NCBI GenBank assembly: GCA_028700115.1
Contig: JAQVTI010000020.1
Coordinates: 1-10,185, forward strand
From: Candidatus Iainarchaeum sp.
GTDB lineage: Archaea > Iainarchaeota > Iainarchaeia > Iainarchaeales > CSSED10-239
Length of the DNA: 10,185 bases
Direction of reading: 5' to 3'
Below the pieces are notes generated by a model, which ran no database searches, had not been told where the DNA came from, and was given only the letters and a program-made list of their open reading frames with translations. Position numbers and translations under genes: made by a program. The number at the start of each line of letters is the position of its first letter. Positions within the stretch are counted from its first letter, which is position 1. Shown here piece by piece: positions 197 to 10,185 of this stretch.

Positions 197-416
197 CTTT
201 TGTAGAATTGAAACAAAAGTGGAAGAAGATTTATTTGGTTTTGATAATGCTAAAAGAAAGGAATTAATAATGTTCTTAAATATTCAAAATCAAGAAGAAG
301 TAAATGTTAATTGTAAGTTTTTTAAAAAAGTTAGAGAAGAATTAAAAGATTTAATTTTATTTTTTGAAGAACTAAAAGAAGAAGAAGAGGAGTTGAAAAA
401 AGATGCAGGATTTTAA
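132..416 (+). CDS. hypothetical small protein with an N-terminal Cys cluster (possible zinc ribbon) and an acidic/Lys-rich helical C-terminus
   Basis: 94-aa ORF from the track. The N-terminus carries C-x2-C-x5-C-x8-C (YCNHCQNKVNCLYYQENNFC). The C-terminus is EELKDLILFFEELKEEEEELKK. A purine-rich AAAGAGG lies 8 nt upstream of the ATG. Its stop (414-416) lies 14 nt inside the next gene. Its first 65 nt overlap the open TrkA-like frame, so the true start or its reality as a gene is uncertain. I recognise no family. Confidence 0.4.
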   Translation: MNLKYCNHCQNKVNCLYYQENNFCRIETKVEEDLFGFDNAKRKELIMFLNIQNQEEVNVNCKFFKKVREELKDLILFFEELKEEEEELKKDAGF

Positions 417-750
417 ACAATTACGTGTTTGGCAGTTAAGCCGTGAGTTTGTTTCAGACATCTACAAGATAACAGCAAACTTTCCAAACCACGAACTCCA
501 CTCAATGACTAATCAATTAAGAAGAGCATCTTATAGCATACCCTCAAATATTGCTGAAGGTTGTGGAAAAGAAAGTCAAAAAGAATTTAAGAGATATTTA
601 AACATATCACAAGGGTCAATTAAAGAGATAGAGTGTTTTTTAATACTTGCAAAAGACTTAAACTATATCTCTGAAGAACAATATACAGAGATAAATGAAA
701 AGTTAGAAATAATTGGAAAAATGATCTGGAAACTAACTACTAAAATTTAG
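403..750 (+). CDS. four-helix-bundle protein ('23S rRNA intervening sequence protein' / S23-ribosomal-like family, related to DGR Avd proteins)
   Basis: 115 aa. The opening FKQLRVWQLSREFVSDIYKITANFP, then ELHSMTNQLRRASYSIPSNIAEGCGK, then EFKRYLNISQGSIKEIECFLILAKDLNYISEEQY are near-textbook signatures of this family (L-x-V-W-Q, Q-[LI]-R-R-A-x-x-S-I-x-x-N-I-A-E-G, A-x-G-S-x-x-E). GAGGAG lies about 12 nt upstream of the ATG. The 5' half (about 403-600) is visibly more G+C-rich than the flanks. Confidence 0.85.
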   Translation: MQDFKQLRVWQLSREFVSDIYKITANFPNHELHSMTNQLRRASYSIPSNIAEGCGKESQKEFKRYLNISQGSIKEIECFLILAKDLNYISEEQYTEINEKLEIIGKMIWKLTTKI

Positions 751-766
751 TTCCCCATCATACTAA

Positions 767-1876
767 TTAATTATCTCTCAAAATACAATTAGAATAAGTG
801 TCTTCTATTTTTGCAGAATATGAATTATTTTGTTTATCTGTAAAAGTTACATACAAATATCCATTATCTTCATAAGATGCCATAAAAGGAGTAACCTCAG
901 ACCAATCTAATCCAATTTGGTATCCATCATATAAATCAAAATAATCAAATCGGTCACTACCTTCTAAAGAATCAGTTTTAGAATAAACTTTATCTTTTTT
1001 TATATAATCCCAATAATCTGTCATCTCTATAGAATAAGCATCTGTAACAAATGTCCCTTCTATTGGAACAATTGTTCCATCATCTGAAATAGGTTTAATA
1101 TAATATATAATACCGTCATCTTCTGCATCTGAATCCCAATTCTTTGAACCCCAACAATCAATTTCTAAATGAGTTACTTTTTTTGTTAATGCAATATCAA
1201 TTTCAGAAGCATCATCTGCACTTGAACCAAATTGATCTTGTGCCATAGATTCTGGAAATAATTGTGGTAATGATGGATCATATAGCGATGTAGATAATTT
1301 ATTATAAGCATCTATATAAGGATTATCAGTTAAATCTGTATCTGGATTGATTTGATTATAATCATAAATATCTTTAATAGCTTTATTAGGGATATTTGTT
1401 TCGCCTAATTTTTTATTTTTATTATCTAGATATATAATATTTATTTTTTCAAAATCAGAATTAATTTCATAAGTTTTTAATCCGACTATTATACCAATTA
1501 AATTTAACATAAGTACTGATTTATAATCATCAGTAACAGTATAGTTTATTGAAAATATTTTGTCTTTTTCTGAGATTGTTACATCTGAAAAAATACCTTC
1601 ACTATTAGAATCAATACTATTATTCCAGTCAATTAATGCTGATTTTATTTTTGAAGTATCTGTAGTAATAATATTTTTAATTAAATTATTATTCTCTGTG
1701 GTTTTATCAGATTCTGGTGTTGTATCCGATGTAATTATATCTCCATCATTATTTTGGTTATTATTATTAATATCAGTATTTGATTTTGGTATAAATAATA
1801 CCACCCCGATTATAATAGCTATAATTACAACCCCCATAATTCCAAAAATTAACATATTATTCTTATTTTTCGACAT
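767..1876 (-). CDS. hypothetical membrane-anchored, probably extracytoplasmic acidic protein with an Asn/Thr-rich linker
   Basis: 369-aa ORF. The N-terminus is MSKNKNN followed by one hydrophobic helix (MLIFGIMGVVIIAIIIGVVLFI), with no lipobox Cys. A low-complexity NNNNQNND/TT linker follows, then a D/E/Y-rich domain with no motif I recognise. A strong GGAGG sits 7 nt upstream of the ATG. It lies 41 nt downstream of, and on the same strand as, the R-M operon. Confidence 0.7.
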   Translation of the reverse strand: MSKNKNNMLIFGIMGVVIIAIIIGVVLFIPKSNTDINNNNQNNDGDIITSDTTPESDKTTENNNLIKNIITTDTSKIKSALIDWNNSIDSNSEGIFSDVTISEKDKIFSINYTVTDDYKSVLMLNLIGIIVGLKTYEINSDFEKINIIYLDNKNKKLGETNIPNKAIKDIYDYNQINPDTDLTDNPYIDAYNKLSTSLYDPSLPQLFPESMAQDQFGSSADDASEIDIALTKKVTHLEIDCWGSKNWDSDAEDDGIIYYIKPISDDGTIVPIEGTFVTDAYSIEMTDYWDYIKKDKVYSKTDSLEGSDRFDYFDLYDGYQIGLDWSEVTPFMASYEDNGYLYVTFTDKQNNSYSAKIEDTYSNCILRDN

Positions 1877-1917: not shown

Positions 1918-2796
1918 TTATAATTTATTTTCATAACTTTGTTTTATAATATTTAAACAATAGTCTATATCTTCAAATTTATCTAGTCTAATCTTAAGAT
2001 TACCTGTTGCCCAATGCCCTACATTTGAAACATCTATTAATTTCTTATTAGGATCACTTATTTCATTCTTATTTGAATCTATATGTATCCATAATCCATT
2101 TGATTGAATAACAATTTCACAAAAATTTTTATCTATTTGATAAGCAATATAGTGCTTTAATACTTTTTCTTTAATTTTACTATCAATAGATAAAATCTTT
2201 TCTTGAATATCTTTAAATAAACTTACAACATTATTTGATTTACCAGTTAAATGATCATCAGCAGTGTACTCTTTGTAAGATATTTTAGTATGTTTTATTT
2301 TCTTTGAAGATTCTCTTGGTAAAACTACATCTTCTACAAATAATATTTTGTTATCATATAATAAGTATTTTTTTAGCTCTATATTTTCAGAAATTCTATT
2401 AACAGCATATTTATCATATTCGTTATATGATTGTGCAATTAATATCAATCTTGGAGAATCCCAAACTACTTGTATATTTTTACCTAATTTATTTTGAACT
2501 AATAATTCAAAATCTCCTTTATGATCTATTAACCAATCTAAATAAAATAATCCTTGATTAATAACATTATCTTTTTCATTTTCTTTATATTCTATAATAA
2601 CAGGAGAACCATCTTCATCTAATCCTAAAGTATCAATTCTTCCACCGTGTGTAGTAGTATATTCAGTTGCTAAAAATTTAATTCCTAAAATTTCTTCCAA
2701 ATTATTTTCAAAAACAGATTGTAATTCTTTTTCATTTTTAAATTTAGTAATTTTAAGTTTATTCATCTTACTTTTATTTAATTCAAATATAGCCAT
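1918..2796 (-). CDS. NucS/DUF91-like PD-(D/E)xK nuclease domain fused to a C-terminal DUF5655-like domain; third gene of the Type III R-M operon
   Basis: 292 aa. The N-terminal half carries a restriction-endonuclease-fold signature: E45, GGRID55TLGLDEDGSPVIIE69YK71, then Q81GLFY (D at 2632-2634, K at 2584-2586). The C-terminal ~115 aa (KHYIAYQIDKNFCEIVIQSNGLWIHID...DPNKKLIDVSNVGHWATGNLKIRLDKFEDIDYCLNIIKQSYE) match my recollection of the DUF5655 pattern (K-x-Y-I-A-[FY]..., G-H-W-G/A-T-G, final [AS]-Y). The ATG lies only 4 nt after the res stop (TGA 2801-2803). Confidence 0.6.
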   Translation of the reverse strand: MAIFELNKSKMNKLKITKFKNEKELQSVFENNLEEILGIKFLATEYTTTHGGRIDTLGLDEDGSPVIIEYKENEKDNVINQGLFYLDWLIDHKGDFELLVQNKLGKNIQVVWDSPRLILIAQSYNEYDKYAVNRISENIELKKYLLYDNKILFVEDVVLPRESSKKIKHTKISYKEYTADDHLTGKSNNVVSLFKDIQEKILSIDSKIKEKVLKHYIAYQIDKNFCEIVIQSNGLWIHIDSNKNEISDPNKKLIDVSNVGHWATGNLKIRLDKFEDIDYCLNIIKQSYENKL

Positions 2797-2800
2797 AACA

Positions 2801-5380
2801 TCAACTCACTTTTTTAACAAAATTTATAAAACTATTATAATCTTTTATTTTTTCATAATTAATATTAATTGTATTAAAATGTTCTTTTGCACATTCAATC
2901 TTTATTTTTTCATAACCCTTTAAATCTAATTCATCTAAACTACCTTTAGTTTCATTTACTAAATATAATTTTTTTGAATTATTTACTTCATATATTATAG
3001 CCCAATCAGGATTATATTTTCCAACAGGAGTATCAATTACAAACCAATTTGGAAGTTTAATATATAATTTAACAGAATTATCTTTTTCTAAATTTACAAC
3101 TAAATTTTCTTCAATATTAGAATCAAAAATTACATTGTCATATAAACTTCTTTCAGTAGAAATTACATCACTATTATATGATTCAATTATTTGATTAAAA
3201 TTATTAACATCCCAAATTTCATTTAAAGAAATATAATTTAAATCACTTACAATCATATTAGTTAATTCTTTATTTATTATATTTGATATTTGTGTAATAA
3301 AATCTCTTGGATTTTTAAAAATATATTCTAATGGAGATTGTAATAATATTTGAATAATGGTTTTTTTAGTTAAATTAGTATCTTTAGATAATTGTTCAAC
3401 TAAATTAGGAATTATATATTTTTCAAAATAATTTTCAGATGCATCTTTTGAAATAGTATAATCAACACCAGTATCTTTAAGAATAACACTTCTTTTTTGA
3501 ACATTTATTTTTGTTTCAGATATAGATAATTCAGAATTAATTCTAGTGACACACTTTTTAATTAAATTATTAGTATCAATATTAACTTCGTATTTAGTTT
3601 TCTTTGCAATAGCATTCCAAAAATTATTAAATAAATCTGAATTTAATATTCCTTTTCTAATTTTTATCTTTCTTAATTCTCTTCTATTCTTTGGCTTAGG
3701 TGAATTACCAACACCATAATCGTCTTCATATTCTTTTTGAAGAGAATCTGCAAATTTATCATAATGTTCATTTGCAATAATTGTTAAACTTTCATTAAAA
3801 TCTTTAATTCTGGTTCCATCTTGATTTACAGGAAGTCTTAAACCCCTACCGATTTCTTGTCTTTTTTTAATAGTAGATTGAGTTTCATTAAGAGTGCAAA
3901 TATTAAAAACATTAGGATTATCCCACCCTTCCTTTAATGCTGAATGAGAAAAGATAAATTGAGTTTTAGTATCAAAAGAGATTAACTTTTCTTTATCTTT
4001 TAAAATTAAATCAATTAAGTCTTGATCTTTATTAATACTACTATCTGTTTTATATGTAGAAAAATAAGATCCTTGAACATCAATTACATTTAAACCTTTA
4101 AAGTCTTTATAATCCTCTTGTTTAATTACATTATTATACTCTTCTTCGAATGTTTTTTTAATAAATCCATCCTTATCAACATAATTTGAAACCCTATCTA
4201 TAAAAAATAAAGAAAGTACTTTTATTCCTAAAGGTTTTAATTTAATTTGCTTACTAAAATGTTCTTTAATTGTTTCTCTTATTTGATATTTCATTAATTC
4301 TTTTTTATTATCCCCTAAAGACTCATTTAATTTAATAGAAACTCCATTTGAAAAACTAATTTTATCTAAACTTTTATTAATTTCAGTTATTATATATCCG
4401 TTATAATCTTCAAACTTAGTTTTTTGATATAAATTATCTCCATTTTTAACAATAAATAATTTCTTTTTATATCCTGACTTTTGTTTAGTATTTAATTCTA
4501 ATTTAGCTTTTAATCCTGTCTTTTCTGCAATTATATCTAAACATTTAATATAAATTGTATTAAAGTCATTTTCTTTTACAACAGATAAGACATCTATTTT
4601 CTTAACTAAACCTAAATTATAAGCATCTATTGGATTTAACTTATAAATTAAATTATAAATATTTTTATGAGTTGCAGAATATCTTAGAGTAAATAATGGA
4701 TTTAATTTCTCAAGAGATGTTTTAGATAAATCACTTTCCATATTTTGAGGTTCATCTAATATTAAAATAGGTTTTGTAGAACTAATTAAATCAATTCCTT
4801 TTTCTCCTCTTAGTTTATCTATATTTTGATTTAAGATATTAGATTCTTTATTAAATGAATCTAAAGTAATAATCATAATCTCTATATTATTATTTCTAGA
4901 AAACTGTCTTACCTTTACAATATCTTTAGAAGAATAATCATAATAATTATAAGGAATATTATCATATAATTTACTAAAATGGTTTTTAGTAATCTCTAAT
5001 GATTTTAAAACTCCTTCTCTAATTGCAACAGAAGGAACAACAATTATAAATTTTTTTAAACCATATTTTTTATTTAGTTCAAAAATAGTTCTAAGATAAA
5101 CATAGGTTTTACCAGTACCTGTTTCCATTTCAATAGTAAAATTAAGATTTGAATCTAATTTTTTGGATACATCTAGTTTATTTTCTATTTGGATTTGGTT
5201 TAAATTATTTAATATATCTTGATTAGTTAAATTTAATTTATTTACAATTGATCCAAATTCGCCAAAAGTTAAATCATTGTCAGATAATTTAATTTGACCT
5301 TTAAATAGATTAACTGTAGAATTAATTGCTTTTCTTTGATAATCTAAATTACTGTCAAACTTAAATTCCATTAAAACCAC
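2801..5380 (-). CDS. res: Type III restriction-modification system Res subunit (SF2 helicase/ATPase plus C-terminal PD-(D/E)xK endonuclease)
   Basis: 859 aa. The N-terminus FKFDSNLDYQRKAINSTVNLFKGQ is typical of Type III Res. Walker A is METGTGKTYVYLRTIFEL (GTGKT at 5105-5119). Motif II is ILILDEPQNM (DEPQ at 4745-4756). A late helicase motif is HSALKEGWDNPNVF. The C-terminal nuclease motif is YNPD792WAII...LYLVNE810TK812G (D at 3005-3007, K at 2945-2947). The start is either GTG at 5380-5378, overlapping the mod TAG stop by 1 nt (the track shows it as M), or the ATG at 5371-5369. Confidence 0.9.
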   Translation of the reverse strand: MVLMEFKFDSNLDYQRKAINSTVNLFKGQIKLSDNDLTFGEFGSIVNKLNLTNQDILNNLNQIQIENKLDVSKKLDSNLNFTIEMETGTGKTYVYLRTIFELNKKYGLKKFIIVVPSVAIREGVLKSLEITKNHFSKLYDNIPYNYYDYSSKDIVKVRQFSRNNNIEIMIITLDSFNKESNILNQNIDKLRGEKGIDLISSTKPILILDEPQNMESDLSKTSLEKLNPLFTLRYSATHKNIYNLIYKLNPIDAYNLGLVKKIDVLSVVKENDFNTIYIKCLDIIAEKTGLKAKLELNTKQKSGYKKKLFIVKNGDNLYQKTKFEDYNGYIITEINKSLDKISFSNGVSIKLNESLGDNKKELMKYQIRETIKEHFSKQIKLKPLGIKVLSLFFIDRVSNYVDKDGFIKKTFEEEYNNVIKQEDYKDFKGLNVIDVQGSYFSTYKTDSSINKDQDLIDLILKDKEKLISFDTKTQFIFSHSALKEGWDNPNVFNICTLNETQSTIKKRQEIGRGLRLPVNQDGTRIKDFNESLTIIANEHYDKFADSLQKEYEDDYGVGNSPKPKNRRELRKIKIRKGILNSDLFNNFWNAIAKKTKYEVNIDTNNLIKKCVTRINSELSISETKINVQKRSVILKDTGVDYTISKDASENYFEKYIIPNLVEQLSKDTNLTKKTIIQILLQSPLEYIFKNPRDFITQISNIINKELTNMIVSDLNYISLNEIWDVNNFNQIIESYNSDVISTERSLYDNVIFDSNIEENLVVNLEKDNSVKLYIKLPNWFVIDTPVGKYNPDWAIIYEVNNSKKLYLVNETKGSLDELDLKGYEKIKIECAKEHFNTININYEKIKDYNSFINFVKKVS

Positions 5381-7260
5381 TATATTGTTTTCAAATTATT
5401 TTTAAATTCATTAGATTCTAAAACTTTGGATAAATTTTGTTTTAAAGAATCATCTAAAGCTGAATCTAAACAAATAAAAATATCTTCTTTTGATAAATTT
5501 AATTCTTTAATTATACTTTTATTTATCTTATTATCTAAACAAACATATAATTTACTAGAAGAATCACTAATTTGATACACTTTATTTGATAAATTATTTA
5601 ATTTTTCTACATTAGAATTTAAAGAAAGTCCTTCTTTAATCAAAATTTCATATATGACATTAATATCTTTATAATTTGATATTAAAGAAGATTCAAATAA
5701 TTTTAATTGAGATTTAAGATTATCTATATCTTCTAACTTATCATTCCAAACAGAATAATTAGAATTAGATAATATAAATGATTTAAATCCTAAATCTAAA
5801 TCTTTTATATCTTCAGAATTATATTCAGATTTAATTTTTGTAATAACTCTTCTTATTCTTTCTTTACAAATATCTGCAATAGAAGTATATCCATCTTTAT
5901 AAGAAATAGATTCTTTAGGTGTTTTTTCAGGTAATTGAACGCAAATAAATTTACGATTTCCTTTATCTAATTTATTTAAATCTAAAACTGCATGTGCGGT
6001 TGTTCCAGAACCTGCAAAAAAATCTAAAATAATATCATTGTCTTTACTTTTAGAAATAAAACACAATAATTTTTTTATAAATTTTATAGGTTTAGGATAT
6101 AAAAAATATTTTTTGTCTTCAAATATATTTTTTAGATCACTATCTCCAGAAGAATTTGTTACTTCATCTATAAAATTTTTATAAGGGTGTTCTTTATTTT
6201 CAAAATAACTTCTATAGTACACTTTATAATGATCTTTAATTTTTCTAAATTCAATTAATCCTTTCTCTTTTCTATTATTATATTCGTTTTTAGATAGTGT
6301 CCAACACCAATCTTTAATATTATACTGCCCTTTTTTCCTCAGTTCATATTTTTCTTTAGAACCACCAGGATATATTTTTGTATCGTCTGGAGCTATAATT
6401 GGATAATCTGAATTAGATGAATAATTTATTCCTTGTCTTTCAAAACTAGTTAGTGCATATCTTTTACCATCTTTATCTAAATATTTATAATTTTTTATAT
6501 CGGCTTTCTTTTTTAAGAAACCATTTAATTCACTAGATTTACAATAAATTAAAACATATTCTGTAATTGTAGATAAGAAAGCACTATCGTTTTTACCTCC
6601 CCCTTTTTTCCAAACTAACTGAGAAATAAAATTTTCTTCACCAAATATTTCATCCATTAAATGTCTTAAATTATGCACTTCATTATCATCAATAGATACA
6701 AAAATAACACCATCTTCTTTTAATAAATTTCTTGCAATAAATAATCGAGGATACATCATAGATAGCCAATTAGAATGGTATCTTCCTTCTGCCTTAGTAT
6801 TTGTGGTTTGCTTTATTCCATCTTTTGTTTGTCCTGTTTGTTCTAAATAAGCTTTTTTGGAATCTTTAAAATCATCATTATAAACAATATCATTACCTGT
6901 ATTATATGGAGGATCAATATAAATCATTTTAATTTTTCCAAAATAAGACTTATTAAGTAATTTTAATACCTCTAAATTATCTCCTTCAATAAAAATATTT
7001 TCTGTAGAATCAAAATTAATTGATCCTTCTTTATCAGGAACTAAAGTTAACTTAGAATTAGTTTGTATATTTTTAATAGATTCGGACTTACCAACCCAAT
7101 TTAAAGAATATTTTTCGTTAGTTTTAGAAATATCTTCTTTAAAAATAGATTTAAATTTATCAAAATCAATTTGATTTTCAGTAAATATTTCTGGAAATAA
7201 ATCTTTTAACCCTTTAATTTTATTATTTAATACGTCTTCAGATTCTTTTTTTACTTCCAT
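5380..7260 (-). CDS. mod: Type III restriction-modification system Mod subunit (beta-class amino DNA methyltransferase, probably N6-adenine)
   Basis: 626 aa. Motif IV is MIYIDPPYNTGND (DPPY at 6904-6915). It precedes motif I, ILDFFAGSGTTAHAVLDLN (FAGSG at 6004-6018), which is the beta-class order. A ~290-aa variable region between them would be the target-recognition domain. The gene sits immediately upstream of res and overlaps it. GGGGATGA lies 4-5 nt upstream of the ATG and resembles a GGTGAT-type SD. Confidence 0.9.
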   Translation of the reverse strand: MEVKKESEDVLNNKIKGLKDLFPEIFTENQIDFDKFKSIFKEDISKTNEKYSLNWVGKSESIKNIQTNSKLTLVPDKEGSINFDSTENIFIEGDNLEVLKLLNKSYFGKIKMIYIDPPYNTGNDIVYNDDFKDSKKAYLEQTGQTKDGIKQTTNTKAEGRYHSNWLSMMYPRLFIARNLLKEDGVIFVSIDDNEVHNLRHLMDEIFGEENFISQLVWKKGGGKNDSAFLSTITEYVLIYCKSSELNGFLKKKADIKNYKYLDKDGKRYALTSFERQGINYSSNSDYPIIAPDDTKIYPGGSKEKYELRKKGQYNIKDWCWTLSKNEYNNRKEKGLIEFRKIKDHYKVYYRSYFENKEHPYKNFIDEVTNSSGDSDLKNIFEDKKYFLYPKPIKFIKKLLCFISKSKDNDIILDFFAGSGTTAHAVLDLNKLDKGNRKFICVQLPEKTPKESISYKDGYTSIADICKERIRRVITKIKSEYNSEDIKDLDLGFKSFILSNSNYSVWNDKLEDIDNLKSQLKLFESSLISNYKDINVIYEILIKEGLSLNSNVEKLNNLSNKVYQISDSSSKLYVCLDNKINKSIIKELNLSKEDIFICLDSALDDSLKQNLSKVLESNEFKNNLKTI

Positions 7261-7387: not shown

Positions 7388-7657
7388 ATGGACTCAAAAC
7401 TAATTTCTTACATTATGCGATCTAAAAATAGACAAAGAATATTAGATTTACTAAAGGATACAGAAAAAACACCTTCTCAATTAGTTAAAGACACAAATAT
7501 GTATCTAACCCATACCCATAGAACAATTAGAGAACTTAAAGATAAAGATTTAATCAAAGCAACAAATCCAGAAGATAAAATATATACATTCTATAAAGTT
7601 ACACCAAAAGGTAAAAAAATAGTTAAAAAAACTAAAAAAGATATTGTATTAAAGTAA
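7388..7657 (+). CDS. small winged-helix-turn-helix DNA-binding protein (ArsR/MarR-like wHTH); candidate regulator of the divergent region
   Basis: 89 aa (80 aa if it starts at Met10, nt 7415). It has the classic wHTH layout: helix RQRILDLLKD, helix TPSQLVKDT, recognition helix THTHRTIRELKDKDLI, then a beta-wing KATNPEDKIYTFYKVTPKG and a basic tail. It is transcribed divergently from mod. Confidence 0.7.
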   Translation: MDSKLISYIMRSKNRQRILDLLKDTEKTPSQLVKDTNMYLTHTHRTIRELKDKDLIKATNPEDKIYTFYKVTPKGKKIVKKTKKDIVLK

Positions 7658-7665
7658 GATAAATT

Positions 7666-8073
7666 ATGAATAAAATAGGTAATTGGATAAACAAAAATAA
7701 AATTGAAATTATTTTCTTAAGTTTAATCCTAATTTTTTACTTTATAACACAATGGTTAATTAATACTAATAATGTAAATCAAACTAATGGAGTTATAATT
7801 ATTTTAATTACCACACTAATAACAATAACATATTTATTTATTGCAATTAATAGATTAGTAAAAGAATTAGCAAAACAATATACAAAAAAAGAAAAATTAA
7901 AATTTAATGGAATAATTTGGTCTATTTTAATAATACCAACTGTAAATATGATAAGTAAGTTAATCATATATAAAAATAATAATTTTACACTATATGATTC
8001 ATTTGAATTTATGTTAACAATTGTTTTATCTTTAGCTGTAATTATATATCTTAGAACTAAAAAGTTAATTTAA
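7666..8073 (+). CDS. hypothetical integral membrane protein (about 4 TM helices)
   Basis: 135 aa, starting 8 nt after the wHTH stop. Four hydrophobic segments are visible: IEIIFLSLILIFYFITQWLI, GVIIILITTLITITYLFIAI, GIIWSILIIPTVNMISKLII and FEFMLTIVLSLAVIIYL. Basic loops separate them (RLVKELAKQYTKKEKLK). I recognise no family. Confidence 0.6.
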   Translation: MNKIGNWINKNKIEIIFLSLILIFYFITQWLINTNNVNQTNGVIIILITTLITITYLFIAINRLVKELAKQYTKKEKLKFNGIIWSILIIPTVNMISKLIIYKNNNFTLYDSFEFMLTIVLSLAVIIYLRTKKLI

Positions 8074-8162: not shown

Positions 8163-8768
8163 TCATAATTTATAATAAATATCATAAAAAAAATCTTTTG
8201 GTTTATTTACAATATATTTTCCATTTTCTAATTTACAATATTTTGACATAGCAAATAATGAAATTACTATCCCACTAATTAGTTTTATTATATTTAATAT
8301 TTGTTCATCTGTATATTCCAACAACCTATCATTATAATGTACACATCTATGTCTTTCGTCGCTAAGACTCTCAAAATTAGCTCTTAATGTGTCATCAATT
8401 ATATTCCATTCAATTAATGCATCCAACATAATTTTCCAATTGGTAAAGGAGCTACATCTATATATGCTTTCTTTTACTTGTAAATATTTATTTTGAGGAT
8501 AATAAGATCTTAAATCTAATATTAATTTATTTAGTATTCTCTCTCCAAAAGCGCTAGCACCCAAAATACTACAATAAAAACAACCATAAATATAGGTTAA
8601 TCTAATTTCAGATAAAATACCACCAATTTCTTTATCAAAAGCAATAATAGGTGGTATTGTATTTAATTTTTGACACCTAATTTTTTGTTTATCATCATAA
8701 TTTGATGATTCAACAAAATTTATAAGTTTTGGTAAACTATCTAAGTAAATTAAATATTGTTTATTCAT
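8163..8768 (-). CDS. HEPN-like (DUF4145-type) protein with an Rx4H motif; putative RNase partner of the upstream Shedu-like nuclease
   Basis: 201 aa, predicted all-helical by eye. The motif LSDER139HRCVH144YN is R-x4-H with a polar residue after the Arg (nt 8337-8354), as in HEPN active sites. The preceding WKIMLDALIEWNIIDDTLRANFESL and the N-terminal EIRLTYIYGCFYCSILGASAFGERILNKLILDL resemble the helix 1 and helix 3-4 patterns I recall for DUF4145-type HEPN domains. The ATG (8768-8766) lies 8 nt inside the end of the upstream gene. Confidence 0.55.
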   Translation of the reverse strand: MNKQYLIYLDSLPKLINFVESSNYDDKQKIRCQKLNTIPPIIAFDKEIGGILSEIRLTYIYGCFYCSILGASAFGERILNKLILDLRSYYPQNKYLQVKESIYRCSSFTNWKIMLDALIEWNIIDDTLRANFESLSDERHRCVHYNDRLLEYTDEQILNIIKLISGIVISLFAMSKYCKLENGKYIVNKPKDFFYDIYYKL

Positions 8769-9963
8769 TTGTTCTCTGTGTTTGCAATTCTAATCTTTTA
8801 AGCAGTTCATCATACAATATAATTTCTATATTTTTTAAAGAACCTCTTAATATTTTAAAATCCTCTCTCATTTGATCGTTTGTTAATAAAGAACTACTTC
8901 CAATTATTAAATATCCCTTAGGAGATACAATATCAACACTAACATTTTTTTCTCTTTTTAAATCTTCTTTTAATACTGCTCTCTTAGTATTAGCATTAAA
9001 CAAATATTTTTCTAATTGTACGATTGCCTTTATAGTAAAATTACTCCAATAATAATTACCTCTATCTTTTTTTTTGGATAACAATGGAGTTGTTGGTTTT
9101 TTTATTTCAAAAATATCCAAAAAATTATTAAAATCAATTAAACCAAAATCAGCTTTTCTAATACCACCTAACATTAAATTAATTTCTGGTATTGAATAAA
9201 GATATTTATAATCAATAAGATATAAATTTTGATTTAAAAATTCACCCCATTCTGATTCAGTAGTATTAGATTTTAACTTTTTGTTAAATTCTAATATAAT
9301 TTTTTCAATATTTAATATATCCACTTTAATTTTTGTTTTCTTAAAATCACCAATATTTAGATTCGAACTTTCGCTTATAGCTAAATTTAAAAATTCAAAT
9401 AACTTAATTATATCCTTTTTATTTAAGTCAGTGATTATTTCTTTATTTAAACTTTCTAAAATTCTATTTATTCGAGATCTGGTTGAATAAATAGGTTTAC
9501 TAAAATCCTCAGAGAATAAATTATTAAAAAATAAGTCAACATATAGAGATCTTTCTCTTTTTTTTTCAGAATCTATAACTGTTAAATTAGATTTTAATTT
9601 TTTAAAATCAAAATAATTTATGTTAACATCAATACATTTTGGAAATCTAATAATTTTACTCTCACTAAATTTAGAAATTGTAAAATATCTTACATTTTTA
9701 TCTTTAAATAACTTATCGAAATAATATAAAATACCTGATTTTATACCCCCTTTTTTATTAAATTCATTTGGAATTTTAATAAATCCATCCAACACAAATT
9801 TTTGAAAAAAATTATAACCCTCAAACTTAGGAAAAAAATTTATTTTTTTCTTAGTTTTATCAATTAAATAAACTAATTTTTTATCTTTATTATCTTCATC
9901 AATTACGAATATTTCTGTAGTATATAAGTCCTTATCTACTTCTTCAACTATTAATTTACCCAT
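8761..9963 (-). CDS. Shedu-like nuclease: C-terminal DUF4263 PD-(D/E)xK domain with an unrecognised ~235-aa N-terminal domain
   Basis: 400 aa. Residues ~236-392 (nt 8788-9258) read ESEWGEFLNQNLYLIDYKY...GGIRKAD272FGLIDFNNFLD283IFE286IK288KPTTPLL...YYWSNFTIKAIVQ316LEKYL...PKGYLIIGSS...FKILRGSLKNIEIILYDELLKRLE. This follows the DUF4263/SduA pattern as I recall it: W-x-x-F-[LF] opening, R-x-[PA]-D-F, hydrophobic-E-[IL]-K-x-P, Q-x-x-x-Y, P-K-G-x-[LIV]3-G, and a terminal I-x-T/L-Y-D-[ED]-L-L. E286 is at 9106-9108 and K288 at 9100-9102. The N-terminal 235 aa carry no motif I recognise. Confidence 0.7.
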   Translation of the reverse strand: MGKLIVEEVDKDLYTTEIFVIDEDNKDKKLVYLIDKTKKKINFFPKFEGYNFFQKFVLDGFIKIPNEFNKKGGIKSGILYYFDKLFKDKNVRYFTISKFSESKIIRFPKCIDVNINYFDFKKLKSNLTVIDSEKKRERSLYVDLFFNNLFSEDFSKPIYSTRSRINRILESLNKEIITDLNKKDIIKLFEFLNLAISESSNLNIGDFKKTKIKVDILNIEKIILEFNKKLKSNTTESEWGEFLNQNLYLIDYKYLYSIPEINLMLGGIRKADFGLIDFNNFLDIFEIKKPTTPLLSKKKDRGNYYWSNFTIKAIVQLEKYLFNANTKRAVLKEDLKREKNVSVDIVSPKGYLIIGSSSLLTNDQMREDFKILRGSLKNIEIILYDELLKRLELQTQRTNE

Positions 9964-9970
9964 ATAAATG

Positions 9971-10185
9971 TTAATGTATAAAACAATTAAAATATCTTAC
10001 TATTTCTTTGTAATTCTGATCCGCTAACAATTGTCGCGATAAATAATGATTTCCACCGACCGAATTACTAACCCTGCCTTGATAATAGTCTGCTATTGAC
10101 TCTGGAATTCCTAATTCTATGCACTTAGTATAGAACCATTTTCTACAGTATTTTATAGGAATTAACTTCTTTCGCTTTATTTCTG
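9971..10185 (-). CDS. tyrosine recombinase / integrase, C-terminal 70 codons (gene continues beyond the window)
   Basis: Absent from the ORF track because the fragment has no Met. The minus-strand frame is open from 10183 down to TAA at 9973-9971. It translates as EIKRKKLIPIKYCRKWFYTKCIELGIPESIADYYQGRVSNSVGGNHYLSRQLLADQNYKEIVRYFNCFIH*. The order x-x-R-K-x-F (box II Arg), then G-[IV]-P-E-x-I-x-D-x-x-Q-G-R, then H-Y (candidate catalytic Tyr) matches the C-terminal catalytic region of tyrosine recombinases. The L/Q-G-R-for-L-G-H variant is one I associate with archaeal integrases. The segment is noticeably more G+C-rich than the neighbouring genes. Confidence 0.55.
   Translation of the reverse strand, partial: EIKRKKLIPIKYCRKWFYTKCIELGIPESIADYYQGRVSNSVGGNHYLSRQLLADQNYKEIVRYFNCFIH

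Follow-up and report, generated by a model that had tools for sequence, protein, structure and literature searches.

ApeA and DARNA/PD-T7-3 are single-protein HEPN defence RNases, and HepT is the toxin of the HepT-MntA system. Shedu is a single-gene system that is often embedded in restriction-modification (RM) systems, including type III, and in mobile elements, and 11 of the 7,687 cases in the survey of Gu et al. are from DPANN archaea (10.1101/2023.08.10.552793). A two-component Shedu has also been described: in KELShedu (KELA + KELB), the upstream KELA binds dsDNA and forms a complex with the nuclease (PMC12577705). A Shedu with a partner is thus not new as a concept.

Here we analyzed a locus in which a Shedu nuclease gene (SduA) overlaps a gene for a 201-aa protein. 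The window, that is the whole stretch of DNA analyzed, is 10.2 kb long and corresponds to an entire contig of a Candidatus Iainarchaeum (DPANN archaeon) MAG. The best explanation of the locus is likely to be a single-gene SduA carried as cargo beside an independent, HEPN-like backbone gene in an integrative element.

SduA and the overlap with its downstream gene

The two ORFs of the original prediction, at 8761..9963 and 8163..8768 on the minus strand, have correct coordinates. On sequence grounds the first, of 400 aa, is certainly a Shedu SduA, a type 1 nuclease with an N-terminal domain and a C-terminal DUF4263 PD-(D/E)xK domain. The latter had been expected at residues ~236-392 and was detected at residues 234-388 as a match to SduA_C (PF14082; 2e-27, 96.7 bits with a cut-off of 27). 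The protein also matches 17 PADLOC SduA models and, in a PDB sequence search, the solved Shedu structures 8ti8 and 8ps4, and shows sequence similarity (E 3e-11) to the solved tetrameric SduA. The catalytic residues D272, E286, and K288 do not vary among 36 SduA homologues, and Q316 is nearly invariant; a script confirmed these positions and that of the terminal YDELL. Full-length homologues number 217, at 38-48% identity, and a tblastn search of plasmids with SduA gave no match at 1e-10. By analogy with the solved homologues, the product would be an oligomeric PD-(D/E)xK DNase restrained by its N-terminal domain.

Reading the junction (AGA ACA A ATG AA TAA) confirmed that the second ORF starts 8 nt inside the 3' end of SduA, with its ATG at 8768-8766 and the SduA stop at 8763-8761 (overlap ATGAATAA, 8761..8768, minus strand). 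From this same-strand overlap, the two genes are almost certainly co-expressed. The overlap also speaks for a true two-component Shedu variant, in which the SduA DNase and a HEPN-like RNase, sensor, or regulator would be made and work together; the RNase could for example be an abortive-infection layer fired when DNA cleavage fails, with interchangeable families of HEPN partners. We consider such a variant unlikely. Genes are closely packed throughout the contig (same-strand spacings of -14, -8, -1, +4, +7, +8, and +41 nt) and the SduA start itself lies 7 nt downstream of the integrase stop, so that the overlap weighs little. If SduA is indeed an ordinary single-gene Shedu, the locus also cautions against taking a start/stop overlap in compact, AT-rich genomes as evidence of a functional system. 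SduA and the HEPN-like gene would probably be co-transcribed through tight packing.

The same element was sampled a second time in another locus (L112), with an identical SduA segment that extends 246 nt into the HEPN-like gene and breaks at 8522 of the window, either as a true strain variant or through a chimeric assembly. This shared segment is a point in favor of the two-component variant; against it, the HEPN-like gene of this locus is shortened to 86 aa, without the R-x4-H motif, whereas its SduA is intact.

The 201-aa protein and its family

The 201-aa protein (8163..8768, minus strand) is probably HEPN-like, given an invariant R-x4-H motif in its family, its top-ranked fold matches, and sub-threshold matches to HEPN families in Pfam. 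The motif RHRCVH (R139-H-R-C-V-H144, aa 139-144, 8337..8354 on the minus strand, checked by script), with the putative RNase catalytic residues, is present as originally stated. By our own estimate, R-x4-H occurs by chance in ~1/6 of proteins of this size. Here, an alignment of 61 diverged relatives (20-49% identity) shows no variation at R139 or H144, nor at E76 or W111, which indicates that the motif is real; R77 and N80 are nearly invariant in the same alignment, and R139 and H144 are also invariant in a core alignment of 26 sequences. A search of 1.84 billion representatives recovered 186 relatives at E<=0.001. Members of the family are typically ~280 aa long, and the window protein is a short one without the N- and C-terminal parts.

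The protein has zero matches in Pfam (E<=1), PADLOC, NCBIfam, PHROGs, and PDB sequences, and searches of PDB profiles with the full and core alignments returned only noise (e.g. SBDS and CWC22). Neither the window protein nor its relatives reached a significant match to a curated HEPN profile in Pfam or the PDB profiles. Sub-threshold Pfam matches among the relatives fall in HEPN families only, namely DUF4145 (5 members, best 0.008), HepT-like, DUF3644, HEPN_Cthe2314, and Ribonuc_2-5A. The AF2 model of the window protein has a pLDDT of 89.8. In Foldseek, HepT/HEPN toxins rank first for two independent models, weakly (E 0.17-2), and HEPN RNases account for almost every top-ranked fold match of these predicted structures.

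The original prediction had expected two profile matches, of which DUF4263 in the 400-aa protein was found and a HEPN/DUF4145 family in the 201-aa protein was not, no such family reaching threshold. Likewise, the DUF4145-like context that it had proposed was not recovered, with Pfam, NCBIfam, PADLOC, and PDB sequence searches all empty. We rejected the label DUF4145 (PF13643) for this protein, as it has no Pfam match and the core alignment of its family gave an hhalign probability of 0.3 with a true DUF4145 protein.

The 201-aa protein would most likely work on its own as a metal-independent R-x4-H RNase dimer, whether as a toxin, an abortive-infection effector, or an element-maintenance factor. 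Alternatively, it could be a helical protein without nuclease activity that uses the arginine and histidine for binding or structure, e.g. a non-catalytic HEPN-like adaptor. The HEPN profile and PDB sequence matches below significance, the Foldseek E-values of 0.17 or worse, and the terminal parts that the window protein lacks are all consistent with this. We regard it as improbable for three reasons: the arginine and histidine have the right spacing and are as invariant as E76 and W111, with R77 and N80 nearly so; HEPN RNases make up nearly all top fold matches of two separate models; and the repeated sub-threshold matches are confined to HEPN families.

Genomic context of the two families

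Loci of the relatives were gathered by scanning for DNA that could encode LGERILNHLxL (degenerate pattern), as no stretch of the family alignments was conserved enough for a locus search. This gave 111 loci of the HEPN-like family, 103 from species genomes (single-motif scan) and 8 from metagenomes. A search of these loci with an SduA HMM found SduA in 0/111. Conversely, 66 other SduA loci, the identical element mentioned above (L112) excepted, contained no match to an HMM of the HEPN-like family; 49 of them are informative, with at least 650 nt of downstream DNA (0/49). Searched from both sides, the two families show no co-occurrence in these loci, which counts against the two-component variant. 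Clustering and a Pfam census detected no conserved partner of the ~280-aa family; its neighbors are heterogeneous, with the largest neighbor clusters reaching 6-8 loci, and the one that we traced belongs to sphingomonad genomes. The genes downstream of SduA are also heterogeneous or absent (49 informative loci and 7 Pfam-annotated contexts), and in the ~400-aa SduA subfamily a coupled gene downstream is lacking for most homologues, which again speaks against a two-component system. The obligate Shedu plus HEPN two-gene system that had been predicted, with the pair adjacent in other genomes, is not borne out by these loci. As judged from sequence comparison, the two-gene reading is unsupported and the genes are most likely neighbors rather than a new system. 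SduA and the HEPN-like gene would have separate evolutionary histories and probably function independently.

Two other SduA loci have a bona fide member of the HEPN clan directly downstream: a DUF4145 gene at +2 nt in L179 (the L124/L179 pairing) and an Abi_C gene at 0-1 nt in L114. Both arrangements, like the existence in principle of two-gene Shedu systems (KELShedu, PMC12577705), favor the two-component variant. Together with the window, a HEPN-type gene directly follows SduA in 3/~55 loci, a count that may exceed chance, and in 3/9 of those whose downstream gene is tightly coupled. This could suggest that SduAs have repeatedly taken on a HEPN RNase downstream, of any family (the new HEPN-like family, DUF4145, or Abi_C; always -8 to +2 nt), as a modular two-layer DNase plus RNase cassette in integrative elements, at the end near the integrase, a scenario that we hold to be quite improbable. 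If it were true, Shedu would be, like restriction systems, a DNA-targeting defence repeatedly backed by HEPN RNases. Two findings stand against the two-component variant here. The three HEPN-linked SduAs are scattered, with no clustering among 40 homologues, and the SduA of L115 is 84% identical to that of L114 with an unrelated gene downstream. The homology of the latter two loci ends at the SduA stop codon, and SduA thus behaves as a unit of exchange. Iterative HMM searches found no further copies of the DUF4145 or Abi_C neighbors in the SduA loci examined.

The preferred reading of SduA as cargo draws on the relatives of its neighbor. The three nearest relatives of the 201-aa protein (~49% identity) have upstream genes other than SduA. 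For P0001 and P0002 (48-49% identity), the gene in front encodes either a 261-aa protein or a divergent 405-aa protein. The possibility that these two upstream proteins are cryptic SduA-like nucleases was ruled out (hhalign probability 0.1). The start of P0002 is most likely Met14, with which the apparent overlap with its upstream gene vanishes. The sole consistent neighbor of the close relatives is a convergent gene for a winged-helix protein, kept in all three independent relatives and represented in the window by an 89-aa protein (7388..7657, plus strand; Pfam HVO_A0261_N / HTH_45). In L001-L004 its homologues are 40-41% identical and are separated by 4 nt from the HEPN-like stop.

At one edge of the contig, the window holds the 3' end of an archaeal-type tyrosine integrase gene (9971..10183, minus strand, identified by reading its translation), which is truncated by the contig end. 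In L112 the gene is preserved at greater length and gives a match to Pfam Phage_integr_3 (2e-23), and the integrase is 73.5% identical to that of L001, which adjoins a tRNA-Thr. The window also encodes a 23S_rRNA_IVP / bAvd-like four-helix protein (403..750, plus strand; Pfam 3.5e-40) that is 81% identical to its counterpart in L001 (14424-14771), a backbone gene common to the L001 element. Synteny is thus kept for the integrase (73.5%), the HEPN-like gene, the convergent winged-helix gene (41%), and the IVP protein, all held by the L001 element of ~14 kb. This element is integrated at the tRNA-Thr (4281-4354), and a direct repeat of the 3' half of the tRNA (44 bp, 95%) lies 14.2 kb away at 18428-18471, so that this sister locus has the integrase beside a tRNA and the distant repeat of a tRNA-integrating archaeal element. 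The window, which breaks off within the integrase gene, contains no tRNA or att repeat. The other upstream genes of the relatives, the retained winged-helix gene and integrase, and the L001 element point to SduA as cargo and to the HEPN-like gene as backbone, a status defined by only three independent relatives.

Most of an integrase-bearing integrative element would accordingly be represented in the window, with defence genes in its variable regions. SduA would be an ordinary single-gene type 1 Shedu in a variable slot between the integrase and the backbone HEPN-like gene. The second variable region holds as cargo the type III RM methyltransferase Mod (5380..7260, minus strand; PADLOC MTase_III 5.5e-181, Pfam N6_N4_Mtase). 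The type III restriction enzyme Res is encoded at 2801..5380 on the minus strand (PADLOC REase_III 3.4e-246; Pfam ResIII and RE_endonuc), and 4 nt past it on the same strand is the gene for a PDC-S18 candidate defence protein (1918..2796; PADLOC PDC-S18 1.4e-99), which has a NucS-like nuclease N-terminus and a DUF5655 domain (Pfam 3.8e-14). A scan of viral contigs found no close relatives of the 201-aa family and so offers no support for a viral nature of the element.

The HEPN-like protein would travel with the convergent 89-aa winged-helix regulator, and the functional pair may be these two proteins, as a toxin/regulator module for addiction or superinfection exclusion to which SduA is irrelevant. 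We regard this as a tentative possibility. The winged-helix gene is the only neighbor retained in three independent relatives, the stops of the two genes are 4 nt apart in L001-L004, and both lie inside the att-bounded L001 element. On the other hand, the genes are convergent and not co-transcribed, the wider ~280-aa family has no winged-helix partner, and the observations are three in all. In the window, moreover, 89 nt and the gene for a 135-aa predicted membrane protein (7666..8073, plus strand) intervene; the latter is known from its ORF, with no above-threshold family match in Pfam or PADLOC and no homologue in L001-L004. Such a pair is compatible with a single-gene SduA beside an independent backbone gene, and refines this explanation rather than replacing it.

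The value of a single-gene SduA as cargo, if this reading is true, is mainly descriptive. It offers a clean case, in DPANN archaea, of a Shedu gene that a tRNA-integrating element carries as exchangeable cargo; the defence repertoire of these archaea is, to our knowledge, poorly known. It also flags a widespread, unannotated HEPN-like family without a Pfam, NCBIfam, or PADLOC model (186 cluster representatives, 103 species genomes), which merits a model of its own and a trial as a stand-alone toxin or defence RNase.

Comparison with known systems

Like the HEPN toxins, the 201-aa protein has an invariant R-x4-H. Its predicted fold is helical, with HepT as its best, though weak, structural match. 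No MNT nucleotidyltransferase antitoxin was found among the window ORFs (Pfam) or the neighbors of the family, in which it differs from HepT-MntA. The genes of the wider family are stand-alone and patchily distributed, as in the single-gene abortive-infection RNases ApeA and DARNA/PD-T7-3. Unlike the known HEPN toxins, members of the family carry a GER-x2-N helix motif of their own, and the long ones add an N-terminal segment and a C-terminal beta-rich domain. The arrangement resembles that of the DUF4145 and Abi_C proteins in that a HEPN-type gene lies directly downstream of a DNA-targeting defence gene, but the 201-aa protein belongs to neither family and its own family is never beside SduA elsewhere.

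As in KELShedu, the DUF4263 nuclease gene adjoins a second gene on the same strand. Here, however, the second gene follows the nuclease gene, encodes a HEPN-like protein, and is not found with SduA in other genomes. Compared with Shedu itself (8ti8/8ti9 and 8ps4; type 1 sensu Gu et al.), the window SduA differs in its DPANN host, which is rare, and in a 3' end that overlaps another gene. Its N-terminal domain matches no named family and is conserved over its full length in hundreds of ~400-aa homologues. It shares with Shedu the C-terminal DUF4263 domain with D, ExK, and Q, and its surroundings, a defence island with an integrase and type III RM genes nearby, are typical as well.

A type 1 Shedu nuclease and a HEPN-like neighbour

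Two same-strand ORFs, of 400 aa (8761-9963, -) and 201 aa (8163-8768, -), lie exactly where the original prediction placed them, and all the residues it named are present (D272, E286, K288, Q316 and YDELL in the first; RHRCVH, aa 139-144, nt 8337-8354, in the second). The PD-(D/E)xK domain of DUF4263 type predicted for the 400-aa protein (SduA) was confirmed by Pfam SduA_C (residues 234-388; 2e-27; 96.7 bits, cut-off 27), by 17 PADLOC SduA models and by the solved SduA structures 8ti8 and 8ps4. When 36 homologues are aligned, D272, E286 and K288 show no variation and Q316 hardly any. A database search detected 217 homologues, several annotated as "Shedu immune nuclease family protein". The best (~400-416 aa) share 38-48% identity across 93-100% of the length, thus the N-terminal domain is common to them too and the protein is, by sequence, a type 1 Shedu. 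As established for homologues, it would be an oligomeric DNase that inhibits itself until its N-terminal sensor lifts the block. The gene comes from a DPANN archaeon MAG, in which the window spans an entire contig.

The junction of the two genes (AGA ACA A ATG AA TAA) bears out the predicted overlap, the second ATG lying 8 nt inside the SduA gene. Same-strand spacings across the window are -14, -8, -1, +4, +7, +8 and +41 nt, and with such tight packing throughout, the overlap is weak evidence of a functional link.

For the 201-aa protein, searches of Pfam, PADLOC, NCBIfam, PHROGs and PDB sequences gave no match. Run exhaustively over 1.84 billion representatives, phmmer detected 186 relatives (E<=0.001), most of them 260-300 aa long and aligning to residues ~50-175. 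Among 61 aligned relatives (20-49% identity), E76, W111, R139 and H144 are invariant and G75, R77 and N80 nearly so, which defines two family motifs, a GER-x2-N helix and R-[HN]-x3-H. The AlphaFold model built from this alignment is of high confidence (pLDDT 89.8) and largely helical. In a Foldseek comparison with PDB, HEPN proteins fill almost all of its top 25 places (best E 0.17), including the HepT toxins 7bxo, 7ae6 and 5yep and also Csm6'; the match to 2q00 has a probability of 0.93, a target-normalised TM-score of 0.66 and an rmsd of 3.9 Å. The model of a 277-aa relative (pLDDT 89.9) gave the same ranking. Pfam matches of family members are sub-threshold throughout; those that recur are to HEPN families, namely DUF4145 in five members (best 0.008), HepT-like, DUF3644, HEPN_Cthe2314 and RNase 2-5A. 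PDB profile searches with the family alignments gave no match, nor did 17 members against PADLOC and NCBIfam.

Based on the invariant motif, the HEPN fold ranking and the sub-threshold HEPN matches, we accept the protein as HEPN-like, with R-x4-H as its probable active site; it probably represents a separate family and would presumably be an RNase. The prediction of an R-x4-H HEPN-like protein is thus probably right, but its DUF4145 label was dropped.

The ~280-aa relatives (L009-L111; P0004-P0151) are widespread in many bacterial phyla, Patescibacteria and Nanoarchaeia. They share an M-x-R-Y-R start, the GER-x2-N helix, R-[HN]-x3-H and a beta-rich C-terminal domain ending in SDEEF, and none of Pfam, NCBIfam and PADLOC has a model for them.

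Neighbourhoods of the two genes

Among 5.8 billion proteins, only two (P0001 and P0002) are close relatives of the HEPN-like protein (48-49% identity). In the contigs that carry them (L001-L004), a gene for a protein of 261 aa (L001/L002) or for a divergent one of 405 aa (L003/L004) lies upstream. Both proteins lack Pfam and PADLOC matches, and profile comparison ruled them out as SduA-like. An apparent 8-nt overlap in L001 vanishes if Met14, in line with the start codons of the other two, is taken as the start of P0002. All four loci retain a gene encoding a winged-helix protein of 89 aa, which shares 40-41% identity with window 7388-7657 and is convergent with the HEPN-like gene, their stops being 4 nt apart. 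Scanning one genome per species for the degenerate pattern LGERILNHLxL yielded 103 loci, which nearly always encode a ~280-aa member; they are spread over many bacterial phyla and also include a Nanoarchaeia MAG. The SduA HMM detected no SduA in these 103 loci or in eight metagenome places, and neighbour clustering found no conserved partner of the ~280-aa family; its 137 immediate neighbours are heterogeneous in Pfam, with a handful of integrases alongside TrbI, ArdC, a transposase and housekeeping genes.

Searched from the other side, 67 metagenome SduA loci (49 with at least 650 nt downstream) gave a single match to the HEPN-family HMM, in L112 (JGI Ga0265294_10119897), which carries the same element as the window. 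Neighbour clusters of SduA comprise type I RM subunits, transposases and recombinases, in agreement with a survey in which 602 of 5,499 Shedu genes are located within type I-IV RM systems, 1,110 are associated with transposable elements and 11 occur in DPANN archaea (10.1101/2023.08.10.552793). In seven Pfam-annotated contexts of distinct homologues, SduA is followed by pentapeptide proteins, nothing, a transposase, small uncharacterised ORFs or conjugation genes.

One caveat comes from eight loci in which an ORF of 100 aa or more, on the same strand, starts within 60 nt of the SduA stop. Two of these ORFs are true HEPN-clan proteins of families other than the window's: a DUF4145 protein (1.1e-10) after a 2-nt gap in L124/L179 (L179:1885-3848) and an Abi_C protein (4.5e-12) with no gap (about 0-1 nt) in L114 (4977-7049). 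Including the window, the SduA-then-HEPN order occurs three times in about 55 loci. These three HEPN proteins come from unrelated families, and their SduAs are scattered, without clustering, among 40 homologues. Moreover, the SduA of L115 is 84% identical to that of L114, and homology stops at the SduA stop codon, the downstream gene being unrelated. All three observations argue against a conserved system, and the last indicates that SduA alone behaves as the mobile unit. We consider a true two-layer Shedu+HEPN system unlikely. The DUF4145 gene of L124/L179 adjoins an integrase/excisionase pair.

Between ~10064 and 8522, L112 matches the window at 100% identity; the integrase segment before this stretch has 13 substitutions, and past codon 82 of the HEPN-like gene the two sequences diverge completely (L112:1617-2054; window 8768-8522). 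The remnant is an 86-aa ORF (P0003) without R-x4-H, followed by an unrelated ORF beginning MPSGKVHRAISYKRTGF. Either L112 represents a genuine recombinant strain or its assembly is chimeric; if it is no chimera, SduA persists there beside a disrupted neighbour.

A probable integrative element

A partial integrase ORF of archaeal type (9971-10183, -; Phage_integr_3, 2e-23 on the longer L112 copy) stops 7 nt ahead of the SduA start and is 73.5% identical to the integrase of L001. There, the integrase lies immediately after tRNA-Thr (L001:4281-4354), whose 3' half is directly repeated (44 bp, 95%) 14.2 kb further (L001:18428-18471), delimiting an integrated element. AAA_14/DUF4143 ATPase genes flank it outside the att repeats (1-734; 19605-20663). 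The interval carries HEPN-like, winged-helix and 23S_rRNA_IVP/bAvd-like genes, the latter 81% identical to window 403-750. Given the common integrase and shared genes, window and L001 are probably two versions of one integrative-element family, with a backbone of integrase, HEPN-like, winged-helix and IVP-like genes and two variable regions. The first holds seven uncharacterised genes in L001 versus SduA only in the window. The second comprises, in the window, a membrane protein, a type III RM system (Mod, 5.5e-181; Res, 3.4e-246) and the candidate defence protein PDC-S18 (1918-2796, -; 1.4e-99; NucS-like N-terminus and DUF5655).

The PDC-S18 gene begins 4 nt past Res, as though appended to the RM operon. 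The 369-aa protein at 767-1876 (-) combines a membrane anchor at its N-terminus with a low-complexity region rich in Asn/Asp, and has no family match and no homologue in the sister loci. The IVP-like four-helix protein (403-750, +) is encoded by the element's best-conserved gene, preceded by a 94-aa Cys-rich ORF (132-416, +) with a 14-nt overlap.

Most likely, SduA and the HEPN-like protein are two independent modules, the latter a putative stand-alone R-x4-H RNase of the backbone that may be under the control of the winged-helix protein or connected with it. Both domain calls of the original prediction therefore hold, but not the obligate two-gene system, as homologues of the two genes are not adjacent in the loci searched from either side, apart from L112 with the same element. 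A two-component Shedu of another kind, KELShedu, has already been published (PMC12577705); the window adds new members to known kinds, namely a Shedu from DPANN archaea and a HEPN-like family so far without annotation.
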